44,895 nucleotides of DNA from Escherichia phage VEc3, in the sequence record NC_047899.1. One strand, given 5' to 3'. Shown one piece after another: positions 6,083-24,723 of this stretch. The notes under the pieces were generated by a model. The model had not been told where the DNA came from and ran no database searches. It saw nothing but the letters and a program-made list of their open reading frames with translations. The translations under genes and the position numbers were made by a program. Each line of letters starts with the position of its first letter. The stretch's first letter is position 1.

Positions 6083-6116
6083 GGCCATTCCTTCGGGAGT
6101 GGCCTTTTCTTTTACC
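6083..6116 (+). terminator. Rho-independent terminator after the RNAP gene
   Basis: GGCCATTCC-TTCG-GGAGTGGCC stem-loop (UUCG tetraloop) followed by TTTTCTTTT. Confidence 0.7.
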
Positions 6117-6147
6117 TACTACCGGTAACATTTCATTAACATAAAGT

Positions 6148-6163
6148 GTCTCACATGTGAGAC
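6148..6163. repeat. 16-bp perfect palindrome GTCTCACATGTGAGAC (copy 1)
   Basis: Exact palindrome immediately upstream of the phage promoter at 6166. Confidence 0.8.
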
Positions 6164-6165
6164 TT

Positions 6166-6188
6166 ATTTACCGGACACTATAGGATAG
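6166..6188 (+). promoter_or_regulatory. Phage RNAP promoter (ATTTACCGGACACTATAGGATAG)
   Basis: Matches the ATTTACyGGACACTATAG core; predicted +1 G at 6183. Confidence 0.6.
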
Positions 6189-6329
6189 CCGTCGGAGACG
6201 GGAAAGAAAGGGAAGATAAAGGATATAAAAGGAAGTAATAGGTATTAAAGGCTATATAGGTTATCTAGGAATACCTATTACCTTCTTCCTTCCTCTTATT
6301 ACTACTTAGAGGAAGGGCAGATCTAGGTT

Positions 6330-6345
6330 GTCTCACATGTGAGAC
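6330..6345. repeat. 16-bp perfect palindrome GTCTCACATGTGAGAC (copy 2)
   Basis: Exact palindrome immediately upstream of the promoter at 6351. Confidence 0.8.
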
Positions 6346-6350
6346 TTCGT

Positions 6351-6373
6351 ATTTACCGGACAGTATAGATAAG
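6351..6373 (+). promoter_or_regulatory. Phage RNAP promoter variant (ATTTACCGGACAGTATAGATAAG)
   Basis: Consensus-like with C to G at -5; precedes the HNH gene. Confidence 0.5.
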
Positions 6374-6395
6374 ACTAACTTACTTTGGAGGTTAC

Positions 6396-6812
6396 ATGCG
6401 TAAATCATTAGCTCAAAGAGTAGAGCAAGCAGGTTATACTATACAAGACGACGGTACTATCAAAGGTAAGCGAGGTAACATCTTGAAACCTTGGCTTCAA
6501 TCTTCAGGTTATCCAGTTGTAAATATAGTATTCAAGAAAGGTACAAAGACAACTACCCTTGTGCATCGCATAATTGCTAGTAAGTATTGTCCTTGCTCTG
6601 ACCCGTTGGCTAATGATGTAAACCACAAAGACGGAATCAAGACTAATAATGCAGCTTCTAATCTTGAATGGATTACACGTAGGCAGAACCGTAATCACTA
6701 TTTAGGTTTTGAGGACTATATGACACTTACGGCAGAGGATGCCCGTAAGAAGAATAATGAGCGCACTATTGCTCGACGTAAATTACTTAAACAGTTGAAT
6801 AATAAGGACTAA
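6396..6812 (+). CDS. HNH homing endonuclease
   Basis: 138 aa; VNHKDGIKTNNAASNLEWITRRQNRNH motif; AT-rich relative to neighbours. Confidence 0.85.
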   Translation: MRKSLAQRVEQAGYTIQDDGTIKGKRGNILKPWLQSSGYPVVNIVFKKGTKTTTLVHRIIASKYCPCSDPLANDVNHKDGIKTNNAASNLEWITRRQNRNHYLGFEDYMTLTAEDARKKNNERTIARRKLLKQLNNKD

Positions 6813-6814
6813 TT

Positions 6815-6946
6815 ATGCGTACTAACTTCGAAAAGATGACCCGTAAAGCTAACCGTTTTGACATGGAAGAAGGGCAGAAGAAAGGCAAGAAGCTGAATGT
6901 ACCTGTCCGTGACCGTGCATCTAAACGCGCTGCGTGGGAGTTCTAA
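6815..6946 (+). CDS. gp1.1-like small basic protein (43 aa)
   Basis: MRTNFEKMTRKANRFDMEEGQKKGKKLNVPVRDRASKRAAWEF resembles recalled T7 gp1.1 (MRNFEKMTKRSNRNARDFEATKGRKLNKTKRDRSHKRSWEGQ); AAGGA RBS. Confidence 0.5.
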   Translation: MRTNFEKMTRKANRFDMEEGQKKGKKLNVPVRDRASKRAAWEF

Positions 6947-6949
6947 GTT

Positions 6950-8938
6950 ATGGCTATTATTCAGAATGTACCGTGTCCTGCCTGTCAAAAGAATGGACAT
7001 GATATTACTGGCAACCATCTTATGATATTTGAGGATGGCGCTGGTTACTGTAACCGTGGTCACTTCCATGATAACGGTAAACCTTATTACCACAAGCCGG
7101 AAGGTGGCATCGAGATAACCGAGTTACCTATTACTGGCAATATCAAATATACACCTTCTCAATTCAAAGAAATGGAGAAGGAAGGGAAGATAAGCGACCC
7201 TAAGCTACGCGCCATCGCACTTGGTGGTATGCGTATGAAAGACCGTTGGGAGGTTATGAATGAGCAAGAAAGGGCAGACCAAGAAGCAGAGTGGAAACTT
7301 GATGTTGAATGGTTCCTCACGCTTAAGCGTAAGAACCTTGTATCCCGTCACATTCGAGGTGACATCGCAGCAATGTACGATGTGCGCGTTGGACACGATG
7401 AAGAGGGAAGAGTCAACCGTCACTATTATCCACGATATGAAAAGGGTGTGCTTGTTGGAGCAAAATGCCGGACGTTGCCGAAGGATTTTAAGTTCGGACA
7501 CCTAGGTAAACTCTTTGGTATGCAAGATCTTTTCGGTATGAACACTTTGTCTCACGTGTTAGACAAGGGGAGACGAAAGGATTGCTTGCTTATTGTAGGC
7601 GGTGAACTTGATGCACTAGCAGCGCAGCAGATGCTCCTTGATTCTGCCAAGGGTACTAAGTGGGAAGGCCAGCCATACCATGTATGGTCTGTCAACAAAG
7701 GTGAGTCTTGCCTTGAAGAGATAGTGCAGAACCGTGAGCATATCGCCCAATTCAAGAAGATTATTTGGGGCTTTGATGGGGATGGGGTTGGGCAGAAGCA
7801 GAACCAGCAAGCGGCTCGCCTGTTTCCCGGCAAATCCTATATCCTTGAATATCCTTCTGGTTGCAAAGATGCCAACAAGGCATTGATGGCTGGCAAGGCT
7901 AAAGAATTTGTGGATGCTTGGTTTAATGCAAAGTCATCTGATGAAGTCTTTGGTAGCCAGATTAAATCTATCGCATCTCAAAGAGATAAGCTCAAGGCTG
8001 CACGTCCAGAACAAGGGCTGTCATGGCCTTGGCCTAAGCTAAACAAGGTAACACTGGGTATCCGTAAGAACCAGCTTATCATTATAGGTGCAGGCTCTGG
8101 TGTAGGTAAGACTGAGTTCCTCCGTGAAGTAGTTAAGCATCTCATTGAAGAACACGGTGAATCTGTAGGCATCATTTCTACAGAAGACCCGATGGTCAAG
8201 GTGTCCCGTGCTTTTATCGGTAAGTGGATTGATAAGCGTATTGAGTTACCTCCAACCAATGACCCGAAAGAAGACGGATACCGTGAGGTGTTCGACTACA
8301 CCGAGGAAGAAGCTAACGCCGCCATTGATTATGTAGCTGATACAGGTAAGCTGTTTGTAGCTGACCTAGAAGGTGACTATTCGATGGAGAAGGTAGAGCA
8401 AACTTGCCTAGAGTTTGAGGCCATGGGTATTTCTAATATCATCATTGATAACTTAACGGGGATTAAATTAGATGAGCGTGCTTTTGGTGGGAAGGTTGGT
8501 GCACTTGATGAATGCGTCAAGCGGATTGGTACTATCAAAGACAGACACCCAGTTACTATATTCCTTGTATCACACCTTACACGTCCTCCGGCAAACCGTA
8601 CCCAACACGAAGAAGGTGGCGAGGTTATCCTTTCTGACTTCCGAGGCTCAGGAGCTATCGGATTCTGGGCATCTTACGCCTTGGGGATTGAGCGTAATAC
8701 AAGAGCTGAAACGCTTGACGAAAGGACTACCACGTATATCTCATGTGTCAAAGATCGCGACCAAGGTATCTTCACCGGAACCAAGATTATGCTTAAGGGT
8801 GATATTCAAACCGGACGTTTGAGAGAACCACAGGCTAGAACAAGGTCATTTGATACAGGTGAAGCAAGGCAACAAGAAGTGCCGGATTTACCGGACACTA
8901 TAGAAGAGACAACTTTTGACGATGAACAGGAGTTTTAA
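6950..8938 (+). CDS. DNA primase/helicase (gp4-like)
   Basis: 662 aa; N-terminal Cys4 zinc ribbon (CPACQ...CNRGHFH); Walker A GAGSGVGKT; acidic C-terminus ending ...DDEQEF. Confidence 0.9.
   Translation: MAIIQNVPCPACQKNGHDITGNHLMIFEDGAGYCNRGHFHDNGKPYYHKPEGGIEITELPITGNIKYTPSQFKEMEKEGKISDPKLRAIALGGMRMKDRWEVMNEQERADQEAEWKLDVEWFLTLKRKNLVSRHIRGDIAAMYDVRVGHDEEGRVNRHYYPRYEKGVLVGAKCRTLPKDFKFGHLGKLFGMQDLFGMNTLSHVLDKGRRKDCLLIVGGELDALAAQQMLLDSAKGTKWEGQPYHVWSVNKGESCLEEIVQNREHIAQFKKIIWGFDGDGVGQKQNQQAARLFPGKSYILEYPSGCKDANKALMAGKAKEFVDAWFNAKSSDEVFGSQIKSIASQRDKLKAARPEQGLSWPWPKLNKVTLGIRKNQLIIIGAGSGVGKTEFLREVVKHLIEEHGESVGIISTEDPMVKVSRAFIGKWIDKRIELPPTNDPKEDGYREVFDYTEEEANAAIDYVADTGKLFVADLEGDYSMEKVEQTCLEFEAMGISNIIIDNLTGIKLDERAFGGKVGALDECVKRIGTIKDRHPVTIFLVSHLTRPPANRTQHEEGGEVILSDFRGSGAIGFWASYALGIERNTRAETLDERTTTYISCVKDRDQGIFTGTKIMLKGDIQTGRLREPQARTRSFDTGEARQQEVPDLPDTIEETTFDDEQEF
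8886..8908 (+). promoter_or_regulatory. Phage RNAP promoter embedded in the primase/helicase 3' coding sequence
   Basis: ATTTACCGGACACTATAGAAGAG, full consensus; +1 G at 8903; encodes ...DLPDTIEE... Confidence 0.65.
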
Positions 8939-9099
8939 TGGAAATTATTAAACCAGTATTGAATATCGGTATTGAGATCCTATTCATGCTTGTGATCGCA
9001 GATTATGCTGCACGATATGGCTTCAAGAAAGCAGTGAAACTTATCGTTGCATCTGGTTTTATGATGTCAATGTTCTTTATTGTAACACGCCTTATCTAG
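8938..9099 (+). CDS. Small membrane protein (53 aa)
   Basis: ATG overlaps the primase stop (TAATG); two hydrophobic segments. Confidence 0.4.
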   Translation: MEIIKPVLNIGIEILFMLVIADYAARYGFKKAVKLIVASGFMMSMFFIVTRLI

Positions 9100-9116
9100 T
9101 GTATTTATCAGGGCTT

Positions 9117-9132
9117 GTCTCACATGTGAGAC
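9117..9132. repeat. 16-bp perfect palindrome GTCTCACATGTGAGAC (copy 3)
   Basis: Extended stem GCTTGTCTCACA/TGTGAGACAGGC, followed by TCTTATT. Confidence 0.8.
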
Positions 9133-9171
9133 AGGCTCTTATTAAGTACATTAAATAACTGGAGATTGATT

Positions 9172-9855
9172 ATGTATAAATTAGTATTGAATGTAGGTGA
9201 TTATGTTCGTAACATCAATGAAGCCTCACGTCGTTATCGTTGCCGTGGTGTAGTGGCTCGTGTAAGTGAGAACATGTATCATGTAGAATATGATGAGGGT
9301 ATTAAGGCTTCTTATCACAAGAAAACCGCACATAAATATCTTGAAAAGGTTGTAGAGGTAAGCAATCAATGTAAGTGCATACATGATGAGGTTTGCGATA
9401 AATGTGCTCGCCAGATGCTTAAGAATTTCCTAGCCCCTCTTTATTATGGTGCTGGTCCTCAAACACTAGCAGAGTACATGGCAGAAAAGAAAACCACACT
9501 CAAGAAAGAGCGTCGCAATGTAATCACTGGTAAGACTCAGAGTGAGATGATTAAGCAATGTGGCACTGCATTAGGTGTTACACAGTTCAATACTCGTGCA
9601 TTGGGTAAATCCACAGGACAAGCTATGGTGAAAATTGGTGAAGCTATGATGCACCCAAATGTGCCTGTGCGAATCTTGGATGTTGACCATGCAATCACAG
9701 AGCATGGCACACCACGGCGTGTAGCTAATGATCATTTCGCCGACACTATAGAAGGTATTATTCGTAAGCAAGGGTTGAAAGGTCTTCACATCTTGAATGA
9801 TGAAGAGTTACTGTACCTCCCTATTGTTACTGAAGAAACATACGTGAATATCTAA
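9172..9855 (+). CDS. Hypothetical protein (227 aa), Cys-containing
   Basis: Track ORF 9166-9855 (TTG); ATG 9172 preferred (GGAG 7 nt upstream); no family recognised. Confidence 0.6.
   Translation: MYKLVLNVGDYVRNINEASRRYRCRGVVARVSENMYHVEYDEGIKASYHKKTAHKYLEKVVEVSNQCKCIHDEVCDKCARQMLKNFLAPLYYGAGPQTLAEYMAEKKTTLKKERRNVITGKTQSEMIKQCGTALGVTQFNTRALGKSTGQAMVKIGEAMMHPNVPVRILDVDHAITEHGTPRRVANDHFADTIEGIIRKQGLKGLHILNDEELLYLPIVTEETYVNI
9734..9756 (+). promoter_or_regulatory. Candidate phage promoter inside CDS (ATTTCGCCGACACTATAGAAGGT)
   Basis: Conserved -12 to +5 core GACACTATAGAAG, upstream half diverged. Confidence 0.35.
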
Positions 9856-9865
9856 GGAGTTAATC

Positions 9866-10084
9866 ATGACTAAGGTATTAATTTATATGCGTGGACCTCA
9901 TAAATGCTATGCAGTTGTAGCACCAAATGGTGTTAAGCCTTATAGTACTTCAAAAGGATTGGCATTAATAGGTGCTAGTAGTAGTGCAAGTTTCCAAATG
10001 GAACTTTTTGGTCATTGGACTGAAAGGCAATTCCGTGAGGATTTTAAAGTCATTGGCAGCTTCATGGTGAAATATGCAGAATAA
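9866..10084 (+). CDS. Hypothetical protein (72 aa)
   Basis: Track ORF; AAGGAG RBS. Confidence 0.5.
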   Translation: MTKVLIYMRGPHKCYAVVAPNGVKPYSTSKGLALIGASSSASFQMELFGHWTERQFREDFKVIGSFMVKYAE

Positions 10085-10250
10085 ACATAGTCTTAGAATG
10101 TTCGATGGTCATGAAGACCTGCAAGCCAAGATTACTAACCAAGCCTTCCTGTTCGCACAGTTAACTATGGCTGAGGCCAAGAAGAATAGTCTCACTCGTG
10201 AACAGGTTATCAAGGAAAGTGAAGTGAAACGTAAGATTCGCAGTCGATAA
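10074..10250 (+). CDS. Small ORF (58 aa), hypothetical
   Basis: ATG 10074 overlapping upstream gene end; no clear RBS. Confidence 0.3.
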   Translation: MQNKHSLRMFDGHEDLQAKITNQAFLFAQLTMAEAKKNSLTREQVIKESEVKRKIRSR

Positions 10251-10260
10251 GTCAAGGGTT

Positions 10261-10276
10261 GTCTCACGTGTGAGAC
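10261..10276. repeat. Palindrome variant GTCTCACGTGTGAGAC (copy 4)
   Basis: One central change; extended stem GGTTGTCTCAC/GTGAGACAGCC then TTTTAT. Confidence 0.7.
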
Positions 10277-10307
10277 AGCCTTTTATCATGTTGATTGGAG
10301 GTGCATT

Positions 10308-10415
10308 ATGCCACGTGATTATGATTCTGATTGGGACTATTATGACTCAATGAATCCAAAACCCGAACGTTCAGATGATTACTACGAAACAGAGGTAATG
10401 TATGAAGACTATTGA
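10308..10415 (+). CDS. Small acidic ORF (35 aa), hypothetical
   Basis: GGAGG RBS 6 nt upstream; overlaps DNAP start by 14 nt. Confidence 0.35.
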   Translation: MPRDYDSDWDYYDSMNPKPERSDDYYETEVMYEDY

Positions 10416-12948: not shown

Positions 12949-13064
12949 TGGATAGGCTTGACATTATTTGCCTATTCTTCACTCTCTTTCTTACACTCCT
13001 TATGCTTGCTTGTTATGGGAGTATGAGACTAGATATACCTGATGAAGAAGAGGGTTACGACTAA
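12948..13064 (+). CDS. Small membrane protein (38 aa)
   Basis: ATG overlaps DNAP stop (TGATG); hydrophobic core LFFTLFLTLLMLACY. Confidence 0.35.
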   Translation: MDRLDIICLFFTLFLTLLMLACYGSMRLDIPDEEEGYD

Positions 13065-13162: not shown

Positions 13163-13230
13163 GTTATACTCAAGGTCACTTACGAGTGGCCTTTATGGAT
13201 AACTTATCCCTACTTATTTTGTCTAACATG

Positions 13231-13253
13231 ATTTACTGGACACTATAGAAGGA
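13231..13253 (+). promoter_or_regulatory. Phage RNAP promoter (ATTTACTGGACACTATAGAAGGA)
   Basis: Full consensus; +1 G at 13248. Confidence 0.7.
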
Positions 13254-13317
13254 AAGCCTAGACAATCTAGGTTTATAAGGTAGTATAGGTAATTAAGTAA
13301 ATATAGGAGATATAAAC

Positions 13318-13695: not shown

Positions 13696-13716
13696 TTACT
13701 GGACACTATAGAACAA
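13694..13716 (+). promoter_or_regulatory. Phage RNAP promoter (AATTACTGGACACTATAGAACAA)
   Basis: Consensus core; +1 G at 13711. Confidence 0.65.
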
Positions 13717-13857
13717 TAGGTCGGCTTAGTTCGGCCTATGATTGTAAAGTGTTGAACCTTATTGTGCATCTTGCACAACCCGATGCTATATCGGGCTTTC
13801 TAGTGAGTACATGCTTGTGCTCAGTACAAAACTAACTGACAATAGGAGACTAAATAA

Positions 13858-14893: not shown

Positions 14894-14909
14894 GTCTCAC
14901 ATGTGAGAC
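14894..14909. repeat. 16-bp perfect palindrome GTCTCACATGTGAGAC (copy 5)
   Basis: Two nt after the upstream stop and 15 nt before the promoter at 14925. Confidence 0.8.
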
Positions 14910-14924: not shown

Positions 14925-14947
14925 ATTTACTGGACACTATAGAAGAG
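14925..14947 (+). promoter_or_regulatory. Phage RNAP promoter (ATTTACTGGACACTATAGAAGAG)
   Basis: Full consensus; +1 G at 14942. Confidence 0.7.
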
Positions 14948-14996
14948 AAGAATTTTAATCGGCGATAATGCCACAACTAACAAAGGAGAATTTAAT

Positions 14997-15371
14997 ATGT
15001 TCAAGATTGAAACTATCGTAAACCGTGTTGTTAAAGGTGCTGCTCTGGTATCCGTTGAGTCTTTCATTATCGTCGATGAAGCTGATCAACTGGTAGCTGG
15101 TACTAAGGCTTACGATACCCGTGAAGAAGCTCAGGCTAAGATTGACAGCATGGGTAACTTCGCTGCTGGTCTGGAGTTCGCTCGCGCTTGCTTCCCTGAG
15201 CAGGCTGACAAAGCTCAGATTGGTAAGGCTAATATCGTAGCTGAATATCTGGATTGGATTGCTGCTGGTAAGCCGGTGAAAGAAGTTAAGTCTGCTGAAG
15301 AAGCTGAAGCTCCAGTAGAAGAAGTAGCTGCACCGGTAGATGCTCCGGTAAGCGAAGAAGAAGAGTTTTAA
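14997..15371 (+). CDS. Small acidic-tailed protein (124 aa), own promoter and terminator
   Basis: Track ORF; Ala/Glu-rich; C-terminus ...VSEEEEF; flanked by promoter 14925 and terminator 15378. Confidence 0.6.
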   Translation: MFKIETIVNRVVKGAALVSVESFIIVDEADQLVAGTKAYDTREEAQAKIDSMGNFAAGLEFARACFPEQADKAQIGKANIVAEYLDWIAAGKPVKEVKSAEEAEAPVEEVAAPVDAPVSEEEEF

Positions 15372-15377
15372 TTGATG

Positions 15378-15410
15378 CCCTGTCTGCCTTAGTGTAGGCA
15401 GGGTCTTTTG
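15378..15410 (+). terminator. Terminator hairpin plus U-run
   Basis: CCCTGTCTGCC-TTAGTG-TAGGCAGGG then TCTTTT; same design as 24688. Confidence 0.65.
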
Positions 15411-15435
15411 CGTAATAGTTATTGGAGAATGAATT

Positions 15436-15741
15436 ATGCCGACTATTAAATCTCGTTTAGTAGCAGACTATGTGTATGGTCGTGACTTAAAGTTAATGCA
15501 AGATTACTTTAAAGTAATCATCCTGCTGGATGGAGAAGTGTTTCACACTAAAACATTCACCCTTCCTGAATTGTTTGATTTAGGTTATTGGGGTTATACA
15601 TATCAGGCCATAGCAGACAAGGTGCTACTCAGTGTATTAGAGGAGTGGCCTACATGCGACCAAACTTCGACTTCGGAGCTACAGTATCGGAAGACAATAA
15701 TCTCATCTTGTGGCCAACTGAAGGTAATAGAATCGCTTTAA
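15436..15741 (+). CDS. Hypothetical protein (101 aa), 3' end overlaps the exonuclease start
   Basis: Track ORF; GGAGA RBS; 88-nt overlap with the preferred exonuclease start makes extent uncertain. Confidence 0.4.
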   Translation: MPTIKSRLVADYVYGRDLKLMQDYFKVIILLDGEVFHTKTFTLPELFDLGYWGYTYQAIADKVLLSVLEEWPTCDQTSTSELQYRKTIISSCGQLKVIESL

Positions 15742-16682
15742 TAGATGCTGATATGTTACCTTACATCGTAGGATGTACAATCAGTGACATGACTTATGTA
15801 CGAGCTACAACTCGTGTTAAGTCAGGACAAGTCCCATCAATCAAAGATACACCTGAGTGTAAGCAAGCGTGTGACCGTGTGAACTCCTTGCTCAACTCTT
15901 GGGTGTATGCAGCAGAGTGTGATGCAGCTAAATTATTCATGACGAAATCAGAAGCTAACTTCCGTGTTCGCCTAGCCTTCACCAAGCCTTATAAGGGTCA
16001 ACGTAAGACCGAGAAGCCTCCGTTCTTCTATGAATTGCGAGAGCATCTCTTAGAGGTTCATGGTGCAATCTTGGCAGATGGAGAAGAGGCTGATGACCTC
16101 ATGAGCATTGCACAATGGGACAGCCACCGCCGCTTCCAGCAAGATACAGGTAACGAGTTTCCTATCGGTAGTCCAGAGCATAAAGCATTCTCTGATACTT
16201 GCATCGTTTCCTTGGATAAGGATTTGATGATTGTTCCCGGTTGGCACCTTCAGCCGGGACAAGAGAAGAAATGGGTAGAGCCTATGGGTTGGCTTGAGTT
16301 ACGCCGTAAGGCTAATGGTCAGGTTAAAGACCTTAAAGGTGCTGGCCTCATGTTTCATTATGCACAGATGATTATCGGTGATGATATTGATAACTATGCT
16401 GGCATACCTGGACGTGGTGCTAAATACGCCTATGATCTTCTCAAAGATTGTAAGACAGAGAAAGAGTTGTACATGGCAGTGCTTGGTGCTTACAAGGCTA
16501 AGTTCGGACATGGACAAGTTAAGATTAAGAATTACCGAGGTGGTTATCGTATCGGCAAGGCTTTTGACCTGATGCTCGAATGTGGTCGCCTAGCTCACAT
16601 GGCAAGATTCAAAGGTGATATATGGCGAGCCGATAAGAACCCAATCTTGTGGGGAGATGATGCGGAATGGTTAGCAAATTAA
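15654..16682 (+). CDS. 5'-3' exonuclease (gp6-like, FEN family)
   Basis: 342 aa from ATG 15654 (AGGAG RBS); acidic active-site blocks IALIDADML, ADGEEADDLM, LDKDLMIV, GDDIDNYAGIPG; track ORF 15588 is an N-terminal over-extension. Confidence 0.8.
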   Translation: MRPNFDFGATVSEDNNLILWPTEGNRIALIDADMLPYIVGCTISDMTYVRATTRVKSGQVPSIKDTPECKQACDRVNSLLNSWVYAAECDAAKLFMTKSEANFRVRLAFTKPYKGQRKTEKPPFFYELREHLLEVHGAILADGEEADDLMSIAQWDSHRRFQQDTGNEFPIGSPEHKAFSDTCIVSLDKDLMIVPGWHLQPGQEKKWVEPMGWLELRRKANGQVKDLKGAGLMFHYAQMIIGDDIDNYAGIPGRGAKYAYDLLKDCKTEKELYMAVLGAYKAKFGHGQVKIKNYRGGYRIGKAFDLMLECGRLAHMARFKGDIWRADKNPILWGDDAEWLAN

Positions 16683-17077
16683 AATCATCGGAGGTAGCAG
16701 CTTATAAGAGGGAATTACTAGAGAAGCAAGGATGGAAGTGCCCCCTATGTGGCGGCAGTCTCAAGGCTGTTACTCCTATAAACCGTGTACTTGACCATGA
16801 CCATGAGACAGGATTCTGCCGTGCTGTTGTATGCCGAGGTTGCAATGGTGCAGAAGGAAAGATTAAGGGTGTTATCTCTGGTTATGGTAAGGCTGGTAAC
16901 AACCGTTACTTCCAGCTTCAATGGTTAGAGCGACTATATGAATACTGGAAGTTACATAGTACGCCTCAGACAGATAAGTTATATCACAAACATCAAACGG
17001 AGGCAGAGAAGCGCGAGGCTAAGAACCGTAAGGCACGCCTTGCTTATGCAAGAAAGAAGGAGGTTAAAGTTGGGTAA
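16667..17077 (+). CDS. Endonuclease VII-like Holliday junction resolvase
   Basis: 136 aa; CPLCG...DHDH...CRGCN zinc-binding pattern as in T4 endonuclease VII. Confidence 0.75.
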   Translation: MVSKLKSSEVAAYKRELLEKQGWKCPLCGGSLKAVTPINRVLDHDHETGFCRAVVCRGCNGAEGKIKGVISGYGKAGNNRYFQLQWLERLYEYWKLHSTPQTDKLYHKHQTEAEKREAKNRKARLAYARKKEVKVG

Positions 17078-18077
17078 GCTTCGCAGCTTGTACAAAGACT
17101 CCGAGGTACTTGATGCAATCGAGCAAGCTACCGACGAGAAAGGTAATGTTAATTACAATGAGATGGCACGTGTATTATCGTGTCACCCTGTGGGTAAGAA
17201 GATTACCCGCCAGTTGGCTCGATACTGGCATGGTCAATTCAAGAAGACCAAGAAGAATGGTGATTATTACCAGACCCTTCTGCAAGAAGATAAGCGTATC
17301 AAAGAAGAGCGTAAGCTCAGGACTCCTGACCGCTACGAGGATTTGGCTATTGTACCATTGCCTGACTCACCTCATCGAAGTGTACTGGTAATCCCAGATA
17401 CTCATGCACCTTATGAGCATCCAGATACCTTAGAGTTCCTTGCAGCAGTCGCGGCACGTTACCGTCCAGATACAGTGGTTCACTTAGGGGATGAGGCAGA
17501 TAAACACGCCCTCTCCTTCCATGACTCTGACCCGAATCTGGATAGTGCTGGCATGGAGCTAGAGAAGGCTCGTGTCTTCATGCACAAGTTGCACAAGATG
17601 TTCCCTGTGATGCGCCTGTGTCATTCTAATCATGGCTCTATGCACTTCCGTAAGGCAAGCGCCAAGGGTATTCCAGTGCAATATCTTCGCACCTACCGTG
17701 AAGTCTTCTTCCCAAATGGAGGTGGCGACCAGTGGGATTGGCAGCATACACATGTTCTTGAGTTGCCGAATGGTGAACAAGTGGCATTCAAGCATCAACC
17801 TGCTGGCTCTGTCCTAGCAGATGCAGCGCATGAGCGTATGAACCTTGTGTGTGGTCACTTGCACGGTAAGATGTCTGTGGAGTACGCACGTAATACACAT
17901 GAACAGTATTGGGCTGTGCAAGGTGGCTGCTTAATTGATGAGTCATCCCGTGCATTTGCCTATGGGCGTGAGTCTAAATACAAGCCAGCATTAGGTTGTG
18001 TGGTTATTCTGGAGGGTGTACCTCATATTGTCCCGATGCAAACCAATAGCGACAACCGTTGGATTGGCAAGATTTAG
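17070..18077 (+). CDS. Calcineurin-like metallophosphoesterase
   Basis: Motifs IPDTHAPYEH, LGDEADKH, CHSNHG, GHLHG; TTG start 17070 with AAGGAGG RBS preferred over track start 16938, which overlaps the endo VII gene; in-frame ATG at 17163 is an alternative. Confidence 0.6.
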   Translation: MGKLRSLYKDSEVLDAIEQATDEKGNVNYNEMARVLSCHPVGKKITRQLARYWHGQFKKTKKNGDYYQTLLQEDKRIKEERKLRTPDRYEDLAIVPLPDSPHRSVLVIPDTHAPYEHPDTLEFLAAVAARYRPDTVVHLGDEADKHALSFHDSDPNLDSAGMELEKARVFMHKLHKMFPVMRLCHSNHGSMHFRKASAKGIPVQYLRTYREVFFPNGGGDQWDWQHTHVLELPNGEQVAFKHQPAGSVLADAAHERMNLVCGHLHGKMSVEYARNTHEQYWAVQGGCLIDESSRAFAYGRESKYKPALGCVVILEGVPHIVPMQTNSDNRWIGKI

Positions 18078-18094
18078 TTGACACTATAGAACAA
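18072..18094 (+). promoter_or_regulatory. Phage RNAP promoter (ATTTAGTTGACACTATAGAACAA)
   Basis: Closest of all copies to the classical SP6 promoter; +1 G at 18089. Confidence 0.65.
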
Positions 18095-18177
18095 AGGGCT
18101 AGGTAAGACTTTATCGGCTGGCGTATCCAAATGATATTGCACTAGCCCTTGATTGTATAGCGAATGGAGGATTCAAT

Positions 18178-18681: not shown

Positions 18682-18682
18682 T

Positions 18683-18856
18683 ATGGAAGGTAAACTGTAT
18701 AGAGGGTACTTCGGTAACTTATATAAAGTAAGCTCTCGCGGTTTTGTATTGACCTCTGATGATGAAGGTGCAATGTGGCACCTAAGTGCATATGGTTCTA
18801 ACTTAGCACACTTTAAAGAGGCAATAGTCAAAGGTGTGATGAAGGAGGTGAAATGA
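18683..18856 (+). CDS. Hypothetical protein (57 aa)
   Basis: ATG 18683 two nt after the upstream stop; track ORF 18665. Confidence 0.4.
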   Translation: MEGKLYRGYFGNLYKVSSRGFVLTSDDEGAMWHLSAYGSNLAHFKEAIVKGVMKEVK

Positions 18857-19800: not shown

Positions 19801-19915
19801 TTTGAACGAAAAACAGCTTGAATTGTTAATAGAAGCCATTGAGCAATACTATTATATGTGGGGCTATCAGTCAGAAGAATTAGACTCCTTATATTCACAA
19901 CTAAAAGGAGGTTAA
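19790..19915 (+). CDS. Small ORF (41 aa), hypothetical
   Basis: AAGGAGG RBS 6 nt upstream of ATG 19790. Confidence 0.4.
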   Translation: MFIDLNEKQLELLIEAIEQYYYMWGYQSEELDSLYSQLKGG

Positions 19916-19917
19916 TT

Positions 19918-20115
19918 ATGTCTTTTGATTCTATGAAGGCAACTCGTGCTGTTGAGGTAGCAGAGGCCATCTTCGAAACTCTATCCTGTGGCATGGAAGT
20001 GCCATATACTTTACTGGCTGATGCAGAAGAACTTGGTCTTTCTGTAGAAGCTATCCAAGAGAAGGTTGACGAATTATATGGTACAGACGAAGAAGAAACC
20101 GACGATTTCATTTGA
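19918..20115 (+). CDS. Small acidic protein (65 aa)
   Basis: ATG 19918 with AAGGAGG RBS; acidic C-terminus EEETDDFI; track ORF 19858 is over-extended. Confidence 0.5.
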   Translation: MSFDSMKATRAVEVAEAIFETLSCGMEVPYTLLADAEELGLSVEAIQEKVDELYGTDEEETDDFI

Positions 20116-20125
20116 AGGAATGGAG

Positions 20126-20248
20126 ATGCTTGAGATGATTCTCAAGCCTTCTTCCCCGAAGGTGACTAAGACTCATGAAGAGTTAATCGTTGATGAAGTG
20201 AAGCGTTACATCATGGATTGTGTCAGAGCACAACTGGTGGTCCAATGA
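20126..20248 (+). CDS. Small ORF (40 aa), hypothetical
   Basis: ATG 20126 with AAGGA 6 nt upstream; ends with ATGA overlap into the next gene. Confidence 0.35.
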   Translation: MLEMILKPSSPKVTKTHEELIVDEVKRYIMDCVRAQLVVQ

Positions 20249-20706
20249 TACGTCCAGCTTCCTTCCTAGATATTCCTGAGATTATAAACCTTGGGAATAA
20301 ATATGTGGAAGAGGAAGTCAAGGTTGTAGCCCACCACTCAGCCTCATGGAATGCAGAACAAAGCGCACATAACCTTTGCGCATCTCTTAGTAGAGAAGAT
20401 TTATTCCTATGGGTTGCTGTAGATGAAGGGCGGATTGTAGGGTTCCTGTGGGCTGGCTATCACGAGTTGGCCCCTTGGACACCTGTAAGGGTTGCCTCTG
20501 ACATTCTCTTTTATATTATACCAGAGAAGCGAGGAACCTTACTTGGTATGCGTCTCATCAAAGCCCTAAAGCAATGGGCTAGTGATAATGAATGCTCTGA
20601 GGTTCGCCTGTCTATCGCCTCTGGTATTAATGAAGAACGTGTCGGACGTATGTATAAGCGACTTGGCTTTGAACCGTTTGGCACTGTGTACAACCTGAAG
20701 TTCTAA
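20245..20706 (+). CDS. GNAT-family N-acetyltransferase
   Basis: 153 aa; acetyl-CoA-binding signature in EKRGTLLGMRLIKALKQWA, preceded by GRIVGF strand. Confidence 0.7.
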   Translation: MIRPASFLDIPEIINLGNKYVEEEVKVVAHHSASWNAEQSAHNLCASLSREDLFLWVAVDEGRIVGFLWAGYHELAPWTPVRVASDILFYIIPEKRGTLLGMRLIKALKQWASDNECSEVRLSIASGINEERVGRMYKRLGFEPFGTVYNLKF

Positions 20707-20715
20707 GGAGATAAC

Positions 20716-20925
20716 ATGGGTGTTGTAAAGAAAGCATTTAAGGCTATCGGTCTTGCTCAAGATGCACCACGTATTGAAGCCAAAGTCCCAGCACAGCAGC
20801 TTGAGCGTAAGCCTGAGACTGAAGCTGAAGATATTCAAATTGGTGCAGGTGGTGATGATGCGACTGCATCTGCAAAAGGTAAGCGCGGCCTTGTCCGTCC
20901 GGTAGCTTCTAGCTTGAAGGTGTAA
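20716..20925 (+). CDS. Small protein upstream of portal (69 aa), possible virion protein
   Basis: Track ORF; AAGGAG RBS; position analogous to T7 gp6.7/7.3. Confidence 0.4.
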   Translation: MGVVKKAFKAIGLAQDAPRIEAKVPAQQLERKPETEAEDIQIGAGGDDATASAKGKRGLVRPVASSLKV

Positions 20926-20926
20926 T

Positions 20927-22477
20927 ATGAAACAGAGCACAGATTTGGAGTATGGAGGTAAGCGGTCTAAGATACCTAAGCTATGGGAGAAGTTCTCCAC
21001 TAAACGTAGCTCTTTCCTTGATAGGGCGAAGCATTACTCCAAATTAACCTTGCCCTATCTGATGAATGACAAAGGTGATAACGAGACTTCGCAGAATGGA
21101 TGGCAAGGTGTAGGTGCTCAGGCAACTAATCATCTAGCCAACAAGCTAGCGCAAGTACTATTCCCTGCACAGCGTTCCTTCTTCCGTGTAGACTTAACTG
21201 CACAAGGTGAGAAGGTTCTTAATCAGCGTGGCCTGAAGAAGACAGAGCTAGCTACCATCTTCGCTCAAGTGGAAACACGGGCAATGAAAGAGTTAGAGCA
21301 ACGTCAATTCCGGCCTGCTGTAGTGGAAGCATTCAAGCATCTTATTGTTGCTGGTAGTTGTATGCTATACAAGCCGAGCAAAGGTGCAATCAGTGCTATC
21401 CCAATGCATCACTATGTAGTTAACCGTGATACCAATGGCGACCTGTTAGACATTATCTTACTGCAAGAGAAAGCCTTACGCACCTTTGACCCAGCTACAC
21501 GTGCTGTAGTAGAGGTTGGCCTGAAAGGTAAGAAGTGCAAGGAGGATGACAGCGTTAAGCTGTACACACATGCTAAGTATCTTGGTGATGGATTTTGGGA
21601 ACTCAAGCAATCTGCTGATGATATCCCTGTGGGTAAGGTGAGTAAAATCAAATCAGAAAAGCTACCTTTCATCCCATTAACTTGGAAGCGAAGCTATGGT
21701 GAGGATTGGGGTCGCCCTCTTGCAGAGGATTACTCCGGTGATTTATTCGTTATCCAATTCTTATCTGAAGCGGTTGCCCGTGGTGCTGCGCTGATGGCAG
21801 ATATCAAGTACCTGATTCGTCCGGGTGCTCAAACTGATGTTGACCACTTTGTTAACTCTGGCACTGGTGAGGTTGTCACTGGTGTAGAAGAAGACATCCA
21901 TATTGTACAGTTAGGTAAATACGCAGACCTCACACCTATTAGCGCGGTTCTAGAGGTATACACTCGCCGTATCGGTGTTGTCTTCATGATGGAGACAATG
22001 ACACGCCGTGACGCCGAACGTGTTACTGCTGTAGAAATCCAGCGAGATGCGTTAGAGATTGAGCAGAACATGGGTGGTGTATACTCCCTCTTTGCTACTA
22101 CTATGCAATCGCCAGTAGCGATGTGGGGTCTGCTGGAGGCAGGGGAGTCCTTCACTAGTGACTTAGTGGACCCTGTGATTATCACAGGTATTGAAGCTTT
22201 AGGACGCATGGCTGAGTTGGATAAACTGGCTAACTTTGCTCAGTATATGTCACTGCCATTACAATGGCCTGAGCCTGTACTAGCTGCTGTGAAATGGCCT
22301 GACTATATGGATTGGGTGCGTGGTCAAATCTCTGCTGAACTGCCGTTCCTTAAATCGGCTGAAGAGATGGCACAAGAACAGGAAGCACAGATGCAAGCAC
22401 AGCAAGCACAGATGCTTGAAGAAGGTGTGGCTAAGGCCGTGCCGGGTGTAATTCAACAAGAACTTAAGGAGGCGTAA
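20927..22477 (+). CDS. Portal (head-to-tail connector) protein
   Basis: 516 aa; N-terminal block GWQGVGAQATNHLANKLAQVLFP resembles T7 gp8. Confidence 0.85.
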   Translation: MKQSTDLEYGGKRSKIPKLWEKFSTKRSSFLDRAKHYSKLTLPYLMNDKGDNETSQNGWQGVGAQATNHLANKLAQVLFPAQRSFFRVDLTAQGEKVLNQRGLKKTELATIFAQVETRAMKELEQRQFRPAVVEAFKHLIVAGSCMLYKPSKGAISAIPMHHYVVNRDTNGDLLDIILLQEKALRTFDPATRAVVEVGLKGKKCKEDDSVKLYTHAKYLGDGFWELKQSADDIPVGKVSKIKSEKLPFIPLTWKRSYGEDWGRPLAEDYSGDLFVIQFLSEAVARGAALMADIKYLIRPGAQTDVDHFVNSGTGEVVTGVEEDIHIVQLGKYADLTPISAVLEVYTRRIGVVFMMETMTRRDAERVTAVEIQRDALEIEQNMGGVYSLFATTMQSPVAMWGLLEAGESFTSDLVDPVIITGIEALGRMAELDKLANFAQYMSLPLQWPEPVLAAVKWPDYMDWVRGQISAELPFLKSAEEMAQEQEAQMQAQQAQMLEEGVAKAVPGVIQQELKEA

Positions 22478-23397
22478 TGTCTTTCTCATTTACTGAACCG
22501 TCAACCACTCACCCTACTGCTGAAGAGGGTCCGGTAGAAACCAAGGAGGTAACAACTGATGCTGCTACTACTGATGCTCCTGCTGACGCTGGCACTGCTG
22601 TACAAGATGACAATGCTGGTGCACAACCTACTGAAGACACCGGAGGAGAAGCCTCTGGACAGCCTTCAGAAAAAAGAGACAATGGCGGAGAGAATGGTGA
22701 ACCTAAGCCAGATGATACCGCGACCGACACTGAGGAAGTGCAATACTTCTTTGGAGAACATGAAGTAACAGTAGACATCCCACAGGATGTAACTGACAGC
22801 CTTAAAGAGAAAGGCATTGATGCCAAGCAGGTTGCCAAGGAACTCTATTCCAAAGGTGGCAAGTTTGAACTGTCAGATGCAACCAAGCAGAAATTGTATG
22901 ATGCTTTTGGCAAGTTTGCGGTAGATGCTTACCTGTCAGGTCTTAAGGCTCAAAATGAAGCCTTCTTCCTGAAAGAAGCCAACGCAGCTAAAGAGTTGGA
23001 AGCAGCTAACACCCAACGCTTCTCTGATGTTTCTAAGGAAATTGGTGGCGAAGAAGGTTGGTCCCGTCTTGAGGAGTGGGCGCTTGAAACGCTATCAGAT
23101 GACGAACTCACGGCATTCAATGCGGTGATGGAGTCTGGCAACCAATACCTTCAGCAATATGCTGTGCGTGAACTAGAAAGCCGCCGTAAGGCTGCACAGG
23201 GTGATGACAAACCAAACCTGATTGAACCCTCTGCACCTGCTGCTGCATCTGAAGATAATGGCCCACTCTCTCGTGAGCAGTACCTGCGTGAGATGATGAC
23301 TCTTAGCTCTCGCTTCGGTACAGACAAGAAGGCTGCTGCTGAGTATCAGGCTAAACTGGATGCTCGCCGTCGTGCTGGTATGGCTCGCGGTCTGTAA
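22477..23397 (+). CDS. Capsid assembly scaffolding protein
   Basis: 306 aa; acidic, Ala/Glu-rich; between portal and capsid; TAATG coupling. Confidence 0.7.
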   Translation: MSFSFTEPSTTHPTAEEGPVETKEVTTDAATTDAPADAGTAVQDDNAGAQPTEDTGGEASGQPSEKRDNGGENGEPKPDDTATDTEEVQYFFGEHEVTVDIPQDVTDSLKEKGIDAKQVAKELYSKGGKFELSDATKQKLYDAFGKFAVDAYLSGLKAQNEAFFLKEANAAKELEAANTQRFSDVSKEIGGEEGWSRLEEWALETLSDDELTAFNAVMESGNQYLQQYAVRELESRRKAAQGDDKPNLIEPSAPAAASEDNGPLSREQYLREMMTLSSRFGTDKKAAAEYQAKLDARRRAGMARGL

Positions 23398-23402
23398 TCA
23401 GT

Positions 23403-23425
23403 ATTTACTGGACACTATAGAAGGG
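23403..23425 (+). promoter_or_regulatory. Phage RNAP promoter for the capsid gene
   Basis: ATTTACTGGACACTATAGAAGGG; +1 G at 23420; transcript begins with hairpin GGGAGA-AATG-TCTCCC, then TAAGGAGG RBS. Confidence 0.75.
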
Positions 23426-23473
23426 AGAAATGTCTCCCTAAATTATCAATTTGATTTATAAGGAGGTTTATTA

Positions 23474-24679
23474 ATGAGCACCCCGAATAACCTGACCAAC
23501 GTTGCAGTCTCCGCTTCCGGCGAGGTAGACAGCCTTCTCATTGAGAAATTCAATGGCAAGGTAAATGAGCAGTACCTGAAAGGTGAGAACATCATGTCCT
23601 ACTTTGATGTTCAGACTGTTACTGGTACTAACACTGTAAGCAACAAATATTTGGGTGAAACCGAGTTGCAGGTTCTGGCACCGGGCCAGTCTCCGGCTGC
23701 AACCTCTACTCAGGCCGATAAAAACCAACTGGTAATCGATGCCACTGTTATTGCTCGTAACACGGTTGCTCACCTGCATGATGTACAGGGTGACATTGAT
23801 AGCCTGAAGCCGAAGCTGGCTACTAACCAAGCGAAGCAGCTGAAGAAGATGGAAGATGAAATGCTGATTCAGCAGATGCTGCTGGGCGGTATTGTCAACA
23901 CTCAGGTTAAGCGTATTAAGCCGCGTGTTAAAGGTCATGGCTTCTCTGTCAACGTAGAAGTTACAGAAAGGGAAGCACTGGTCAACCCGCAGTATGTAAT
24001 GGCGGCTGTAGAGTTTGCTCTGGAGCAGCAGCTTGAGCAGGAAGTAGACATCTCTGATGTAGCTATCCTGATGCCGTGGCGATACTTCAACGTACTGCGT
24101 GATGCAGACCGTATCGTTGACAAGAGCTACACAATTAGCCAGTCTGGTGCAACCATTCAGGGTTTTGTTCTGTCTTCTTACAACTGCCCTGTTATCCCGT
24201 CTAACCGCTTCCCTAAATTCTCTGCTGGTCAGAAACATCACCTGCTGTCAAATAAAGACAACGGTTATCGTTATGACCCGACTGCAGAAATGAATGGCGC
24301 TATCGCTGTACTGTTCACTGCTGATGCGCTGCTGGTTGGTCGTTCTATTGATGTTACTGGCGATATCTTCTATGAGAAGAAAGAGAAGACCTACTACATT
24401 GATACTTTCATGTCTGAAGGTGCAATCCCTGATCGTTGGGAAGCAGTGTCTGTTGTGACAACTAAGCGTAAATCATCTACTGGTGATGCTGATGGTACTG
24501 ATGGAGCACAGCACACTCAAGTTCTTAACCGTGCACAGCGCAAAGCTGTATACGTCAAGAATGCTGCTCCGGCAGGTGCTGCCGTTGCTGCTAGTCTGTC
24601 TGCTGAAGACTTAGTTGCTGCTGTCCGTTCTGTCATGGCAAATGACATTAAGCAGACTGCAATGAAACCTGCTGAGTAA
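23474..24679 (+). CDS. Major capsid protein
   Basis: 401 aa; strong promoter and RBS, highly biased codon usage, followed by a terminator. Confidence 0.85.
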   Translation: MSTPNNLTNVAVSASGEVDSLLIEKFNGKVNEQYLKGENIMSYFDVQTVTGTNTVSNKYLGETELQVLAPGQSPAATSTQADKNQLVIDATVIARNTVAHLHDVQGDIDSLKPKLATNQAKQLKKMEDEMLIQQMLLGGIVNTQVKRIKPRVKGHGFSVNVEVTEREALVNPQYVMAAVEFALEQQLEQEVDISDVAILMPWRYFNVLRDADRIVDKSYTISQSGATIQGFVLSSYNCPVIPSNRFPKFSAGQKHHLLSNKDNGYRYDPTAEMNGAIAVLFTADALLVGRSIDVTGDIFYEKKEKTYYIDTFMSEGAIPDRWEAVSVVTTKRKSSTGDADGTDGAQHTQVLNRAQRKAVYVKNAAPAGAAVAASLSAEDLVAAVRSVMANDIKQTAMKPAE

Positions 24680-24687
24680 TACCTATG

Positions 24688-24723
24688 CCCTATCTACCTT
24701 GCGTAGGTAGGGTTCTTTTTGTT
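24688..24723 (+). terminator. Terminator after the capsid gene
   Basis: CCCTATCTACC-TTGCG-TAGGTAGGG then TTCTTTTTGTT. Confidence 0.75.

Follow-up and report, generated by a model that had tools for sequence, protein, structure and literature searches.

The 44,895-nt genome of Escherichia phage VEc3 (NC_047899.1), analysed here as a whole and called the window below, is a K1-5/SP6-type genome that very probably follows the standard transcription plan of the T7 supergroup (probability about 0.82): (i) a hairpin past the RNA polymerase (RNAP) gene, T1, would be an early terminator for the host RNAP, and (ii) two hairpins past a 124-aa gene and the capsid gene, T2 and T3, would be leaky Tphi-like terminators. 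The genome belongs to Vectrevirus, in the K1-5/SP6 group of T7-like phages; Escherichia phage 6948 is 99.5% and K1-5 about 93% identical to it over positions 5800-6400. That the three hairpins are real, conserved terminators is already known, as they have been predicted in related genomes and one has been tested in SP6. ARNold terminators are annotated at all three equivalent sites in the related GenBank record MK373771, and in UAB_Phi78 and SP6 terminators are placed after the RNAP gene, genes of unknown function, and the capsid gene. The main use of the present reconstruction is a correct annotation, in which the phage follows the standard scheme: an early terminator past the RNAP gene and Tphi-like leaky terminators that define high-output capsid and small-gene cassettes. 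The features used in the reconstruction are the following:

3447..6074, + strand, gene for the single-subunit phage RNA polymerase, with no other gene between it and T1
6082..6114, + strand, T1, predicted intrinsic terminator (10-bp stem closed by a C(UUCG)G tetraloop, then UUUUCUUUU)
6166..6185, + strand, first consensus phage promoter, +1 at 6183, 69 nt past the T1 U-run
14925..14944, + strand, phage-RNAP promoter of the 124-aa gene, inferred +1 at 14942, conserved upstream of the gene in relatives
14997..15371, + strand, 124-aa gene (phrog_4429), homologue of K1-5 gp18 and SP6_20, between its own promoter and T2
15377..15410, + strand, T2, putative Tphi-like class I terminator and attenuator with an 11-bp stem, a 6-nt loop, and CUUUUG
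23403..23422, + strand, phage-RNAP promoter of the capsid gene, ATTTACTGGACACTATA-G, inferred +1 at 23420
23422..23439, + strand, 5'-proximal hairpin of the capsid mRNA, AGGGAGA-AAUG-UCUCCCU, +3 to +20
23474..24679, + strand, major capsid (head) protein gene (phrog_267, E = 7.8e-97)
24687..24721, + strand, T3, predicted equivalent of SP6 t5 and T7 Tphi with an 11-bp stem, a 5-nt loop, and UCUUUUUG
24734..25471, + strand, tail tubular protein A gene (Pfam Tube, E = 5.5e-58), the first of about 11 kb of promoter-less genes

Structure and strand of the three hairpins

An earlier note on this DNA had reported hairpins at these three sites, and its coordinates agree with ours within 1 nt. The T1 stem (6082-6105, AGGCCAUUCC-UUCG-GGAGUGGCCU) has 10 bp including 6 G-C pairs, and its tail UUUUCUUUU ends at 6114. 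The stems of T2 (15377-15404, GCCCUGUCUGC-CUUAGU-GUAGGCAGGGU) and T3 (24687-24713, GCCCUAUCUAC-CUUGC-GUAGGUAGGGU) have 11 bp each and are followed by the tails CUUUUG, ending at 15410, and UCUUUUUG, ending at 24721. The loops of 4, 6, and 5 nt in T1, T2, and T3 and the U-runs are as described previously. The stems, at 10-11 bp, exceed the 9 bp given before, whereas the proposed common wobble does occur in all three hairpins, as a U(5' arm).G(3' arm) pair at position 7 from the stem base; extra wobbles were found at pairs 1 and 10 of T2 and at pair 1 of T3. Each hairpin starts 5-8 nt past a stop codon, and the position of all three is conserved throughout the subfamily.

T1, T2, and T3 were the top three matches in a terminator scan of the window. 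They are also the only + strand sites in the whole window that combine a stem of 9 bp or more with a U-rich tail and a dG no higher than -14 kcal/mol; the - strand of the window contains no hairpin with a U-tail at these thresholds. Shuffled sequence gave a mean of 0.08 such sites per strand, and three sites were reached in 0/100 shuffles. The minimum free energies of the sense strand are -18.2, -18.3, and -16.4 kcal/mol (z = -4.7, -4.0, and -4.1 for T1, T2, and T3, respectively) vs -13.9, -9.8, and -12.2 kcal/mol for the antisense strand, where the folds are weaker because of the G.U pairs. The structures act in + strand RNA. Rfam gave no matches for the three hairpins.

DNA inverted repeats can bind dimeric proteins, and a separate family of perfect palindromes exists in the same genome; it is nevertheless very improbable that T1, T2, and T3 are DNA palindromes, used as protein-binding or recombination sites, or chance inverted repeats. 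The G.U pairs of the stems would be mismatches in DNA, yet they are kept while neighbouring pairs covary, the opposite strand folds less stably, and all three hairpins come directly after a stop codon, their U-runs being on the coding strand. The expectation from shuffled sequence, given above, argues against chance. The separate + strand family is built on GTCTCACATGTGAGAC and consists of 13-bp hairpins (-17.6 to -19.7 kcal/mol); as this second family is equally stable, the case for T1, T2, and T3 alone organising transcription is weaker.

Two further types of signal were considered and rejected. The class II T7-RNAP signal (ATCTGTT followed by a U-run, without a hairpin) does not describe T1-T3, which are hairpin-dependent, and ATCTGTTTT is absent from the window. 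RNase III processing sites are long, irregular intergenic duplexes of about 20 bp or more, whereas the T1-T3 stems have just 10-11 bp, with tight loops and U-runs.

T1 as the probable early terminator

T1 fits the canonical bacterial intrinsic terminator, in which a GC-rich stem with a short loop is followed by 7-9 nt of U-tract. It is the end point of the early region driven by sigma-70, for which sigma-70-like promoters (TTGACA-17-TACATT) were found near 716 and 1348. All consensus phage promoters lie further downstream; the first of these, at 6166..6185, marks the switch from the early region to the phage-RNAP region. Based on this position and on the analogy with T7 TE and the phiA318 'TE', T1 is likely an early, TE-like terminator for the host RNAP. 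In the proposed pathway, the host RNAP would start at the sigma-70 promoters near 716/1348 and stop at T1 just past the RNAP gene; T1 would end early transcription as the counterpart of T7 TE. Both T1 and T7 TE are canonical hairpins with a U-tract that close the host-transcribed early region, whereas T7 TE is located past gene 1.3, downstream of some phage promoters, and T1 precedes all consensus ones. In the SP6/K1E-like phage phiA318, a 'TE' was described directly past the RNAP gene, at the same place as T1, and a Tphi analogue near the capsid gene. The phage polymerase could be stopped at T1 too; a weak promoter-like site is present upstream of the RNAP gene (2188-2206, 3 mismatches, A at +1).

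T1 was present in 25/25 related loci that reach the end of the RNAP gene, with a conserved tetraloop and a changed stem. The wobble of T1 is at pair 4 in SP6 and in the reverse orientation elsewhere, and the internal wobble is missing in some loci (L068, L071, and L076). The pair-7 wobble common to T1, T2, and T3 is thus a coincidence of the K1-5 clade, as the T1 wobble moves or vanishes in relatives. T1 has no sequence similarity to T2 and T3, with its own loop and a longer U-tract; judged by sequence, it is a family separate from them. The previous description of the three hairpins as being of one design therefore stands for T2 and T3, which are sequence relatives, and fails for T1, which is set apart by its tetraloop, its stem, the UUUUCUUUU tract, and its variable wobble.

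These observations also bear on the possibility that all three hairpins form one class of phage-RNAP terminators, with the wobble position as a functional design feature, which we consider unlikely. In all three, a stem of 10-11 bp (between -16 and -18 kcal/mol) carries the U.G pair at position 7 and encloses a 4-6-nt loop, and a U-run follows; T7-type polymerases terminate at many hairpin and U-run sites, heterologous ones included. However, T1 differs from T2 and T3 in sequence, in its C(UUCG)G loop, and in its longer U-tract; its wobble has been moved, reversed, or lost in relatives, whereas that of T2 and T3 is found in 21/21 variants; and it lies at the end of the host-transcribed region, upstream of all consensus phage promoters.

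T2 and T3 as related copies of a putative class I terminator

T2 and T3 have a common stem base, GCCCURUCU...AGGYAGGGU, followed by YUUUUG, which identifies them, at the level of sequence, as relatives and as two related copies. T2 was found after the 124-aa gene in 24/25 related loci; SP6 has an identical T2, conservation or covariation extends as far as the Era103-like phages, and its equivalent is annotated as a terminator in Proteus phage Premi and in MK373771. T3 follows the capsid gene in 32/32 related loci. In an alignment of the 21 distinct T2/T3 sequences, 97.8% of cells are paired and both sides have changed in 6 of the 11 pairs; the observed covariation score was reached by 0/500 shuffles, and slid registers gave only 35-62% pairing. 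In the majority of these variants, the stem is followed by a YUUUUG-type run.

Thus, T2 and T3 combine a stable sense-strand stem-loop, an adjoining U-run, and compensatory change, as expected for class I; both are intergenic, starting 5-7 nt past the stop codons, and co-directional with upstream cognate phage promoters (+1 at 14942 and 23420). Terminator function is well supported: all three hairpins are conserved in place and annotated in MK373771, T2 and T3 covary strongly, and the T3 hairpin is that of SP6 t5. The latter is indirect evidence that the phage RNAP would release its transcript at T3; release at T2 is presumed. The SP6 t5 template contains GCCCTATCTACCTTGCGTAGGTAGGGT, which is the T3 hairpin with all 27 nt identical, and t5 stops SP6 RNAP with about 85% efficiency in vitro in a purified system, where termination is confined almost to one site (Song et al. 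2024, PMC11347151). The SP6 equivalent of the capsid promoter is the P8 promoter used in that work. The t5 site likewise lies between the capsid and tail tubular A genes, with the same downstream RBS and start, AGGAGGATTCATGCC. Two differences were observed: the U-run is UCUUUUG-UUU in SP6 vs UCUUUUUG-UU in the window, and the cognate polymerase of the window is a K1-5-type enzyme with another promoter specificity region (ACTGG/ACCGG in the K1-5 type vs AGGTG in the SP6 comparison). With 35 nt each, T2 and T3 could be used in synthetic biology as compact parts for terminating SP6/K1-5-type polymerases.

Comparison with T7 Tphi revealed several common features: (i) T3, like Tphi, is located past the capsid gene and ahead of promoter-less tail tubular genes (11 and 12 in T7), (ii) in T2 and T3, as in Tphi, a C-G clamp at the base is followed by A-U and then by internal G.U pairs, and the U-run has a terminal G, and (iii) Tphi is also leaky by design. 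The Tphi stem, in contrast, has about 15 bp, an energy of -28 kcal/mol, and several wobbles, and shows no homology to T2 and T3. T7 has a single Tphi, whereas in the phage group of the window a small early/middle gene is followed by a second copy, T2.

The internal U.G wobble is kept in all 21 T2/T3 variants, at stem pair 6-8, and persists beside pairs that have been swapped by double substitutions. One transition would convert this wobble to C-G or U-A. Selection on the T2/T3 wobble is a tentative proposal that we regard as rather doubtful. If true, the wobble could tune leakiness and fix the capsid-to-tail and gp18-to-nuclease ratios; alternatively, it might keep the 5' arm, which is rich in pyrimidines, accessible to antitermination in trans, such as has been shown for abortive transcripts at T7 Tphi. 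The invariant wobble offers a cheap mutational handle on the tuning of termination efficiency.

Proposed single-gene cassettes and read-through

Two single-gene cassettes are proposed, promoter-gp18-T2 and promoter-capsid-T3. In each of them, the nascent + strand RNA would fold into an 11-bp hairpin with a clamp of three C-G pairs at its base and an adjoining short U-run ending in G, at which the phage polymerase would release. As T2 and T3 would close these cassettes, most gp18 and capsid transcripts should be short, capped by a 3' hairpin, and abundant. The earlier proposal that the terminators bracket the most highly expressed units is thus consistent with T2 and T3, whereas T1 marks the end of the early region transcribed by the host. 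High expression of gp18 would be expected from the cassette architecture, which flags the 124-aa protein as probably abundant and deserving study.

According to the promoter map, no phage promoter is present from 14942 to 18089 or from 23420 to 36174. Promoter-less genes follow both terminators: DNA-repair, exonuclease, and endonuclease VII genes downstream of T2, as far as the promoter at 18080, and tail tubular A, tail tubular B, and internal virion protein genes downstream of T3, as far as 36165. T2 and T3 must therefore be leaky; with no phage promoter before 36165, the genes from tail tubular A on depend on T3 read-through. Incomplete termination at T2 and T3 would feed the downstream promoter-less genes by read-through, and the two hairpins would thus act as attenuators setting expression ratios. 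The level of termination at T2 and T3 in vivo is presumed, and so is any stabilisation of transcripts by the hairpins.

Stable 3' stem-loops protect mRNAs, and the hairpins might mainly be protective 3' caps or processing end-points against 3' exonucleases, with little termination. The presence of a 5' hairpin on the capsid mRNA, suggestive of selection for stability, and the substantial read-through required for the downstream genes are compatible with such a role. It is nonetheless improbable as the main function: about 85% of SP6 RNAP complexes stop at the identical t5 hairpin, and the conserved stem-adjoining U-run ending in G is required for termination and superfluous for protection. The cap and terminator roles are not exclusive.

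Leader hairpin of the capsid mRNA

The capsid transcript does have the 5' hairpin noted earlier, located at +3 to +20 rather than at +1. It consists of 7 bp with a 4-nt loop (dG -10.8 kcal/mol, z = -3.9). The hairpin is conserved; its loop varies, and the top A-U pair is replaced by G-C in SP6, a compensatory change. The Era103-like relatives lack it. By analogy with T7, it is a probable 5' stabiliser. Like the T7 phi10 leader, the capsid mRNA opens with a G-rich stem-loop, here GGGAGA...UCUCCC and no more than 3 nt from the 5' end; it differs in having 7 bp and a 4-nt loop. Such a hairpin is not unique to the capsid transcript, since hairpins that start at +6 to +11 were found in the leaders of four further phage promoters of the window.

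Terminator hairpins in the VEc3 genome

Analysis of the RNA polymerase, gp18 and major capsid genes revealed a hairpin followed by a U-rich tail at the 3' side of each:

Terminator hairpins and associated genes
3447-6074: single-subunit RNA polymerase gene
6082-6105, + strand: T1, stem-loop AGGCCAUUCC-UUCG-GGAGUGGCCU (10 bp, 4-nt loop), tail UUUUCUUUU; MFE -18.2 kcal/mol, z -4.7
6396-6812: HNH endonuclease ORF (phrog_959, E = 4.6e-34; Pfam HNH_3)
14997-15371: 124-aa ORF (gp18), homologue of K1-5 gp18 and SP6_20
15377-15404, + strand: T2, stem-loop GCCCUGUCUGC-CUUAGU-GUAGGCAGGGU (11 bp, 6-nt loop), tail CUUUUG; MFE -18.3 kcal/mol, z -4.0
23474-24679: major head (capsid) protein gene (phrog_267, E = 7.8e-97)
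24687-24713, + strand: T3, stem-loop GCCCUAUCUAC-CUUGC-GUAGGUAGGGU (11 bp, 5-nt loop), tail UCUUUUUG; MFE -16.4 kcal/mol, z -4.1
24734-25471: tail tubular protein A gene

The hairpin positions claimed in the earlier note are borne out with a deviation of at most 1 nt, while the stems, described there as 9-bp, are in fact 10-11 bp long. The G-U wobble said to occupy the same position is indeed a U(5').G(3') pair, the seventh from the stem base in all of T1, T2 and T3, but further wobbles are present in T2 and T3.

The three hairpins were the best-ranked matches in a generic terminator scan of the window. With the thresholds tightened (stem of 9 bp or more, dG no higher than -14 kcal/mol, 5 or more U within 8 nt 3' of the stem), they were the only matches on the + strand, and the - strand of the window had none; dinucleotide shuffles gave 0.08 sites per strand, and none of 100 shuffles contained three. 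The antisense folds are weaker (-9.8 to -13.9 versus -16.4 to -18.3 kcal/mol for the sense folds). Since G.U pairs weaken the antisense fold, the T2/T3 element acts as a + strand RNA rather than as a DNA palindrome. The DNA-palindrome and RNase III readings of the hairpins are both rejected, given stem length, the G.U pairs and the strand asymmetry. No Rfam family matched the whole window at gathering thresholds, and the class II T7 termination motif ATCTGTTTT was not found in it.

Known terminators in related phages

In a sequence search, region 5800-6400 showed 99.5% identity to Escherichia phage 6948 and ~93% to K1-5, all matches being to Vectrevirus-type phages (the SP6/K1-5 branch of the T7 supergroup), and the gene order of the window is that of K1-5. 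In SP6, for which seven RNAP terminators are stated, the transcription template of Song et al. 2024 (PMC11347151) comprised "the P8 promoter and the t5 terminator of class I"; the t5 oligonucleotide in the supplement contains ATGCCCTATCTACCTTGCGTAGGTAGGGTTCTTTTGTTTAGGAGGATTCATGCC, and SP6 RNAP terminates at t5 with ~85% efficiency at a nearly single site. The t5 hairpin is identical to that of T3, and its flanks match the junction of the capsid and tail tubular A genes. In MK373771 (Vectrevirus R4596), ARNold terminators are annotated 3' of the genes for RNAP, the gp18 homologue and the capsid protein, along with five others; Proteus phage Premi has an annotated terminator at the T2 position. 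Terminators have also been described in UAB_Phi78 and SP6 after the RNAP gene, genes of unknown function and the capsid gene, and three rho-independent terminators were reported in KBNP1315. The names t1-t7 of the SP6 terminators presumably come from Dobbins et al. 2004. A literature search with the exact sequences of two hairpins and of a palindrome (below) retrieved no paper, the SP6 t5 sequence being present in a supplement only.

Thus, these elements are not new, and a close relative provides a biochemical characterization of one of them. That the three hairpins are terminators is well supported; the observation of the earlier note is confirmed and its interpretation is supported in part.

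Two terminator designs

We fetched three sets of loci from viral contigs: 25 with homologues of gp18, 33 with those of the capsid protein and 27 with those of the RNAP C-terminus. A hairpin with a U-run was found 3' of the gp18 homologue in 24 of 25 loci, and 3' of the capsid and RNAP genes in all loci extending to the gene end (32 and 25, respectively). The SP6 T2 is base-identical to that of the window. In alignment A1, the 21 distinct sequences of T2 and T3 are in register and strongly support an 11-pair stem: 97.8% of cells are paired, both sides have changed in 6 of the 11 pairs, the covariation score was reached by none of 500 shuffles, and slid registers pair only at 35-62%. Common to T2 and T3 are the 5' base GCCCU-R-U-C, the 3' base R-Y-AGGG-Y and a short, usually G-terminated U-run. 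By sequence, T2 and T3 are one family. A U.G wobble occupies alignment columns 10-26 in 16 of the 21 sequences and lies one pair off in the other five, so that every T2/T3 variant has an internal wobble, while the pairs beside it vary (A-U, G-C, C-G).

T1 is of another family. Its stem sequence is unrelated to those of T2/T3; relatives keep a tract of the UUUUCUUUU type and a C-G-closed loop, C(UUCG)G with few exceptions. In SP6, the T1 wobble is found at pair 4; other clades have it in the G.U orientation, and three of the fetched RNAP loci (L068, L071, L076) have no internal wobble. Hence, wobbles of T1 and T2/T3 at matching positions are particular to the K1-5 clade, and the match, judging from these comparisons, would most simply be a coincidence. 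The proposal of one design for all three terminators therefore holds for T2 and T3, but not for T1, with its other stem sequence, C(UUCG)G loop and variable wobble. By its position and form, T1 would correspond to the early host-polymerase terminator; in phiA318, an SP6/K1E-like phage, a terminator named TE lies directly 3' of the RNAP gene. In summary, the three terminators are of two designs, probably serving two polymerases.

Two further features of the T2/T3 surroundings were observed. An AUG directly precedes the stem (AUGCCC...; 15374-15376 and 24684-24686 in the window, columns 1-3 of A1) in 16 of the 21 distinct variants, across genera. It has no conserved ORF behind it (5 codons at T2, 20 at T3) and may exert an upstream context effect on termination. 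In several K1-5-like genomes (loci L003, L007, L010-L014, L017), T2 is set apart from the stop codon of the gp18 homologue by an insertion of ~57 nt with an additional small hairpin, GTTAGTCCTAGTTGACTATCAC; the window and SP6 lack this insertion.

Transcription map

We searched for phage promoters using the consensus TTTACYGGACACTATAGRA and the exact core, and obtained the following map:

Predicted promoters
716, 1348: sigma-70-like promoters, TTGACA-17-TACATT
6183, 6368, 8903, 9751, 13248, 13711, 14942, 18089, 23420, 36174, 38711, 40387: phage promoters (predicted +1)
2204: doubtful phage promoter (+1), 3 mismatches, A at +1

Three exact cores escaped the 19-mer search, in which up to 3 mismatches were allowed: the cores GACACTATAGA at 9742-9752 and 36165-36175 lie within ORFs (9166-9855 and 36021-36365) and have plausible upstream specificity regions, and the core at 18080-18090 is intergenic.

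With sigma-70-like promoters at 716 and 1348 and phage promoters from 6183 onwards, T1 marks where the host-transcribed early region ends; 69 nt separate the end of its U-run from the +1 of the first consensus phage promoter. T2 and T3 close single-gene cassettes, formed by promoter 14942 with gp18 and by promoter 23420 with the capsid gene. Thus, the view that the terminators bracket the most highly expressed units would suit T2 and T3 but not T1. No phage promoter was found by either search between 14942 and 18089 or between 23420 and 36174. Therefore, the genes at 15436-18077 (DNA-repair, exonuclease, endonuclease VII and phosphoesterase) need read-through of T2, and ~11 kb of tail and internal-virion genes need read-through of T3. 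T7 has this arrangement too: Tphi, the terminator after gene 10, lies before tail tubular genes 11 and 12, which lack promoters.

The T7 Tphi fold starts with a C-G clamp and continues with an A-U pair and a G.U run below the upper stem; UUUUUUG follows. T2 and T3 resemble this plan in compact form, with no sequence homology to it. In T7, G-rich abortive transcripts sequester the C+U-rich 5' arm of Tphi, which increases read-through late in infection. A similar antitermination is unsupported here, as inspection of the 5' arms of T2 and T3 showed no complementarity to the initial transcript GAAGGGAG longer than 4 contiguous bases, and it is an improbable explanation of the conserved T2/T3 wobble.

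Next to the promoter at 6352, and followed by the primase/helicase gene, lies the HNH ORF 6396-6812, where K1-5 has only the 129-nt gene 8; this ORF is likely a homing-endonuclease insertion.

The gp18 protein

The gp18 protein belongs to phrog_4429, a family with no assigned function; its homologues in Erwinia, Klebsiella, Proteus and Vibrio phages are all named hypothetical. All have a domain of ~95 residues, followed by a variable linker of Ala, Pro and Glu and by a conserved EE-F at the C terminus. This tail recalls the acidic tails ending in Phe of T7 gp2.5 and E. coli SSB. However, a single-stranded DNA-binding role, suggested by the conserved acidic tail with its EEF end, is disfavoured by the AlphaFold model (mean pLDDT 76.6; averages of 86 or more in blocks over residues 1-90, and above about 86 up to residue 95), in which a beta-hairpin, three helices and a disordered tail make up a fold other than the OB fold, and by Pfam and PDB sequence searches, which gave no match.

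Leader hairpins and other repeated structures

The capsid promoter ATTTACTGGACACTATA-G has an inferred +1 at 23420. The capsid transcript does carry a 5' hairpin, AGGGAGA-AAUG-UCUCCCU (dG -10.8 kcal/mol, z = -3.9), but it spans +3 to +20 rather than starting at +1 as had been proposed. It is kept, with varying loops, in K1-5-like and SP6-like genomes, and its top pair is compensated (A-U in the window, G-C in SP6, G.U in the relative locus L030). Distant relatives have other capsid leader hairpins, starting at +1 to +3; none was found in Era103-like phages. The hairpin is similar to the stem-loop in the T7 phi10 leader, a putative stabilizer of that mRNA. Other leader hairpins, at 6189-6201, 13254-13274, 13716-13739 and 40397-40425 (promoters 6183, 13248, 13711 and 40387), start at +6 to +11 and have energies of -6.3 to -16.9 kcal/mol; that of promoter 6183 covaries in relatives (CCGTC/GACGG versus CCATC/GATGG).

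The perfect 16-bp palindrome GTCTCACATGTGAGAC occurs in 8 copies with 0-2 mismatches versus 0.18 expected (633-648, 6148-6163, 6330-6345, 7549-7564, 9117-9132, 10261-10276, 14894-14909 and 31561-31576). Seven copies are intergenic, and three lie just 5' of phage promoters (+1 at 6183, 6368 and 14942). In SP6-like relatives, both halves have changed together, to GTCCAACGTGTTGGAC. The palindrome extends to 13-bp RNA hairpins at 9110-9139, 10254-10283 and 31554-31583 (-17.6 to -19.7 kcal/mol), with tails that are U-rich only in part; thus, T1-T3 are not the sole strong hairpins of the + strand. Possible roles of the palindrome are weak termination or pausing, processing and protein binding. Two weaker terminator-like hairpins, CCCGATG-CTA-TATCGGG with CUUUCU at 13779-13795 and GGGTGTAC-TCCT-GTACACCC with a poor U-run at 38789-38808, correspond by their gene neighbours to ARNold terminators of MK373771.
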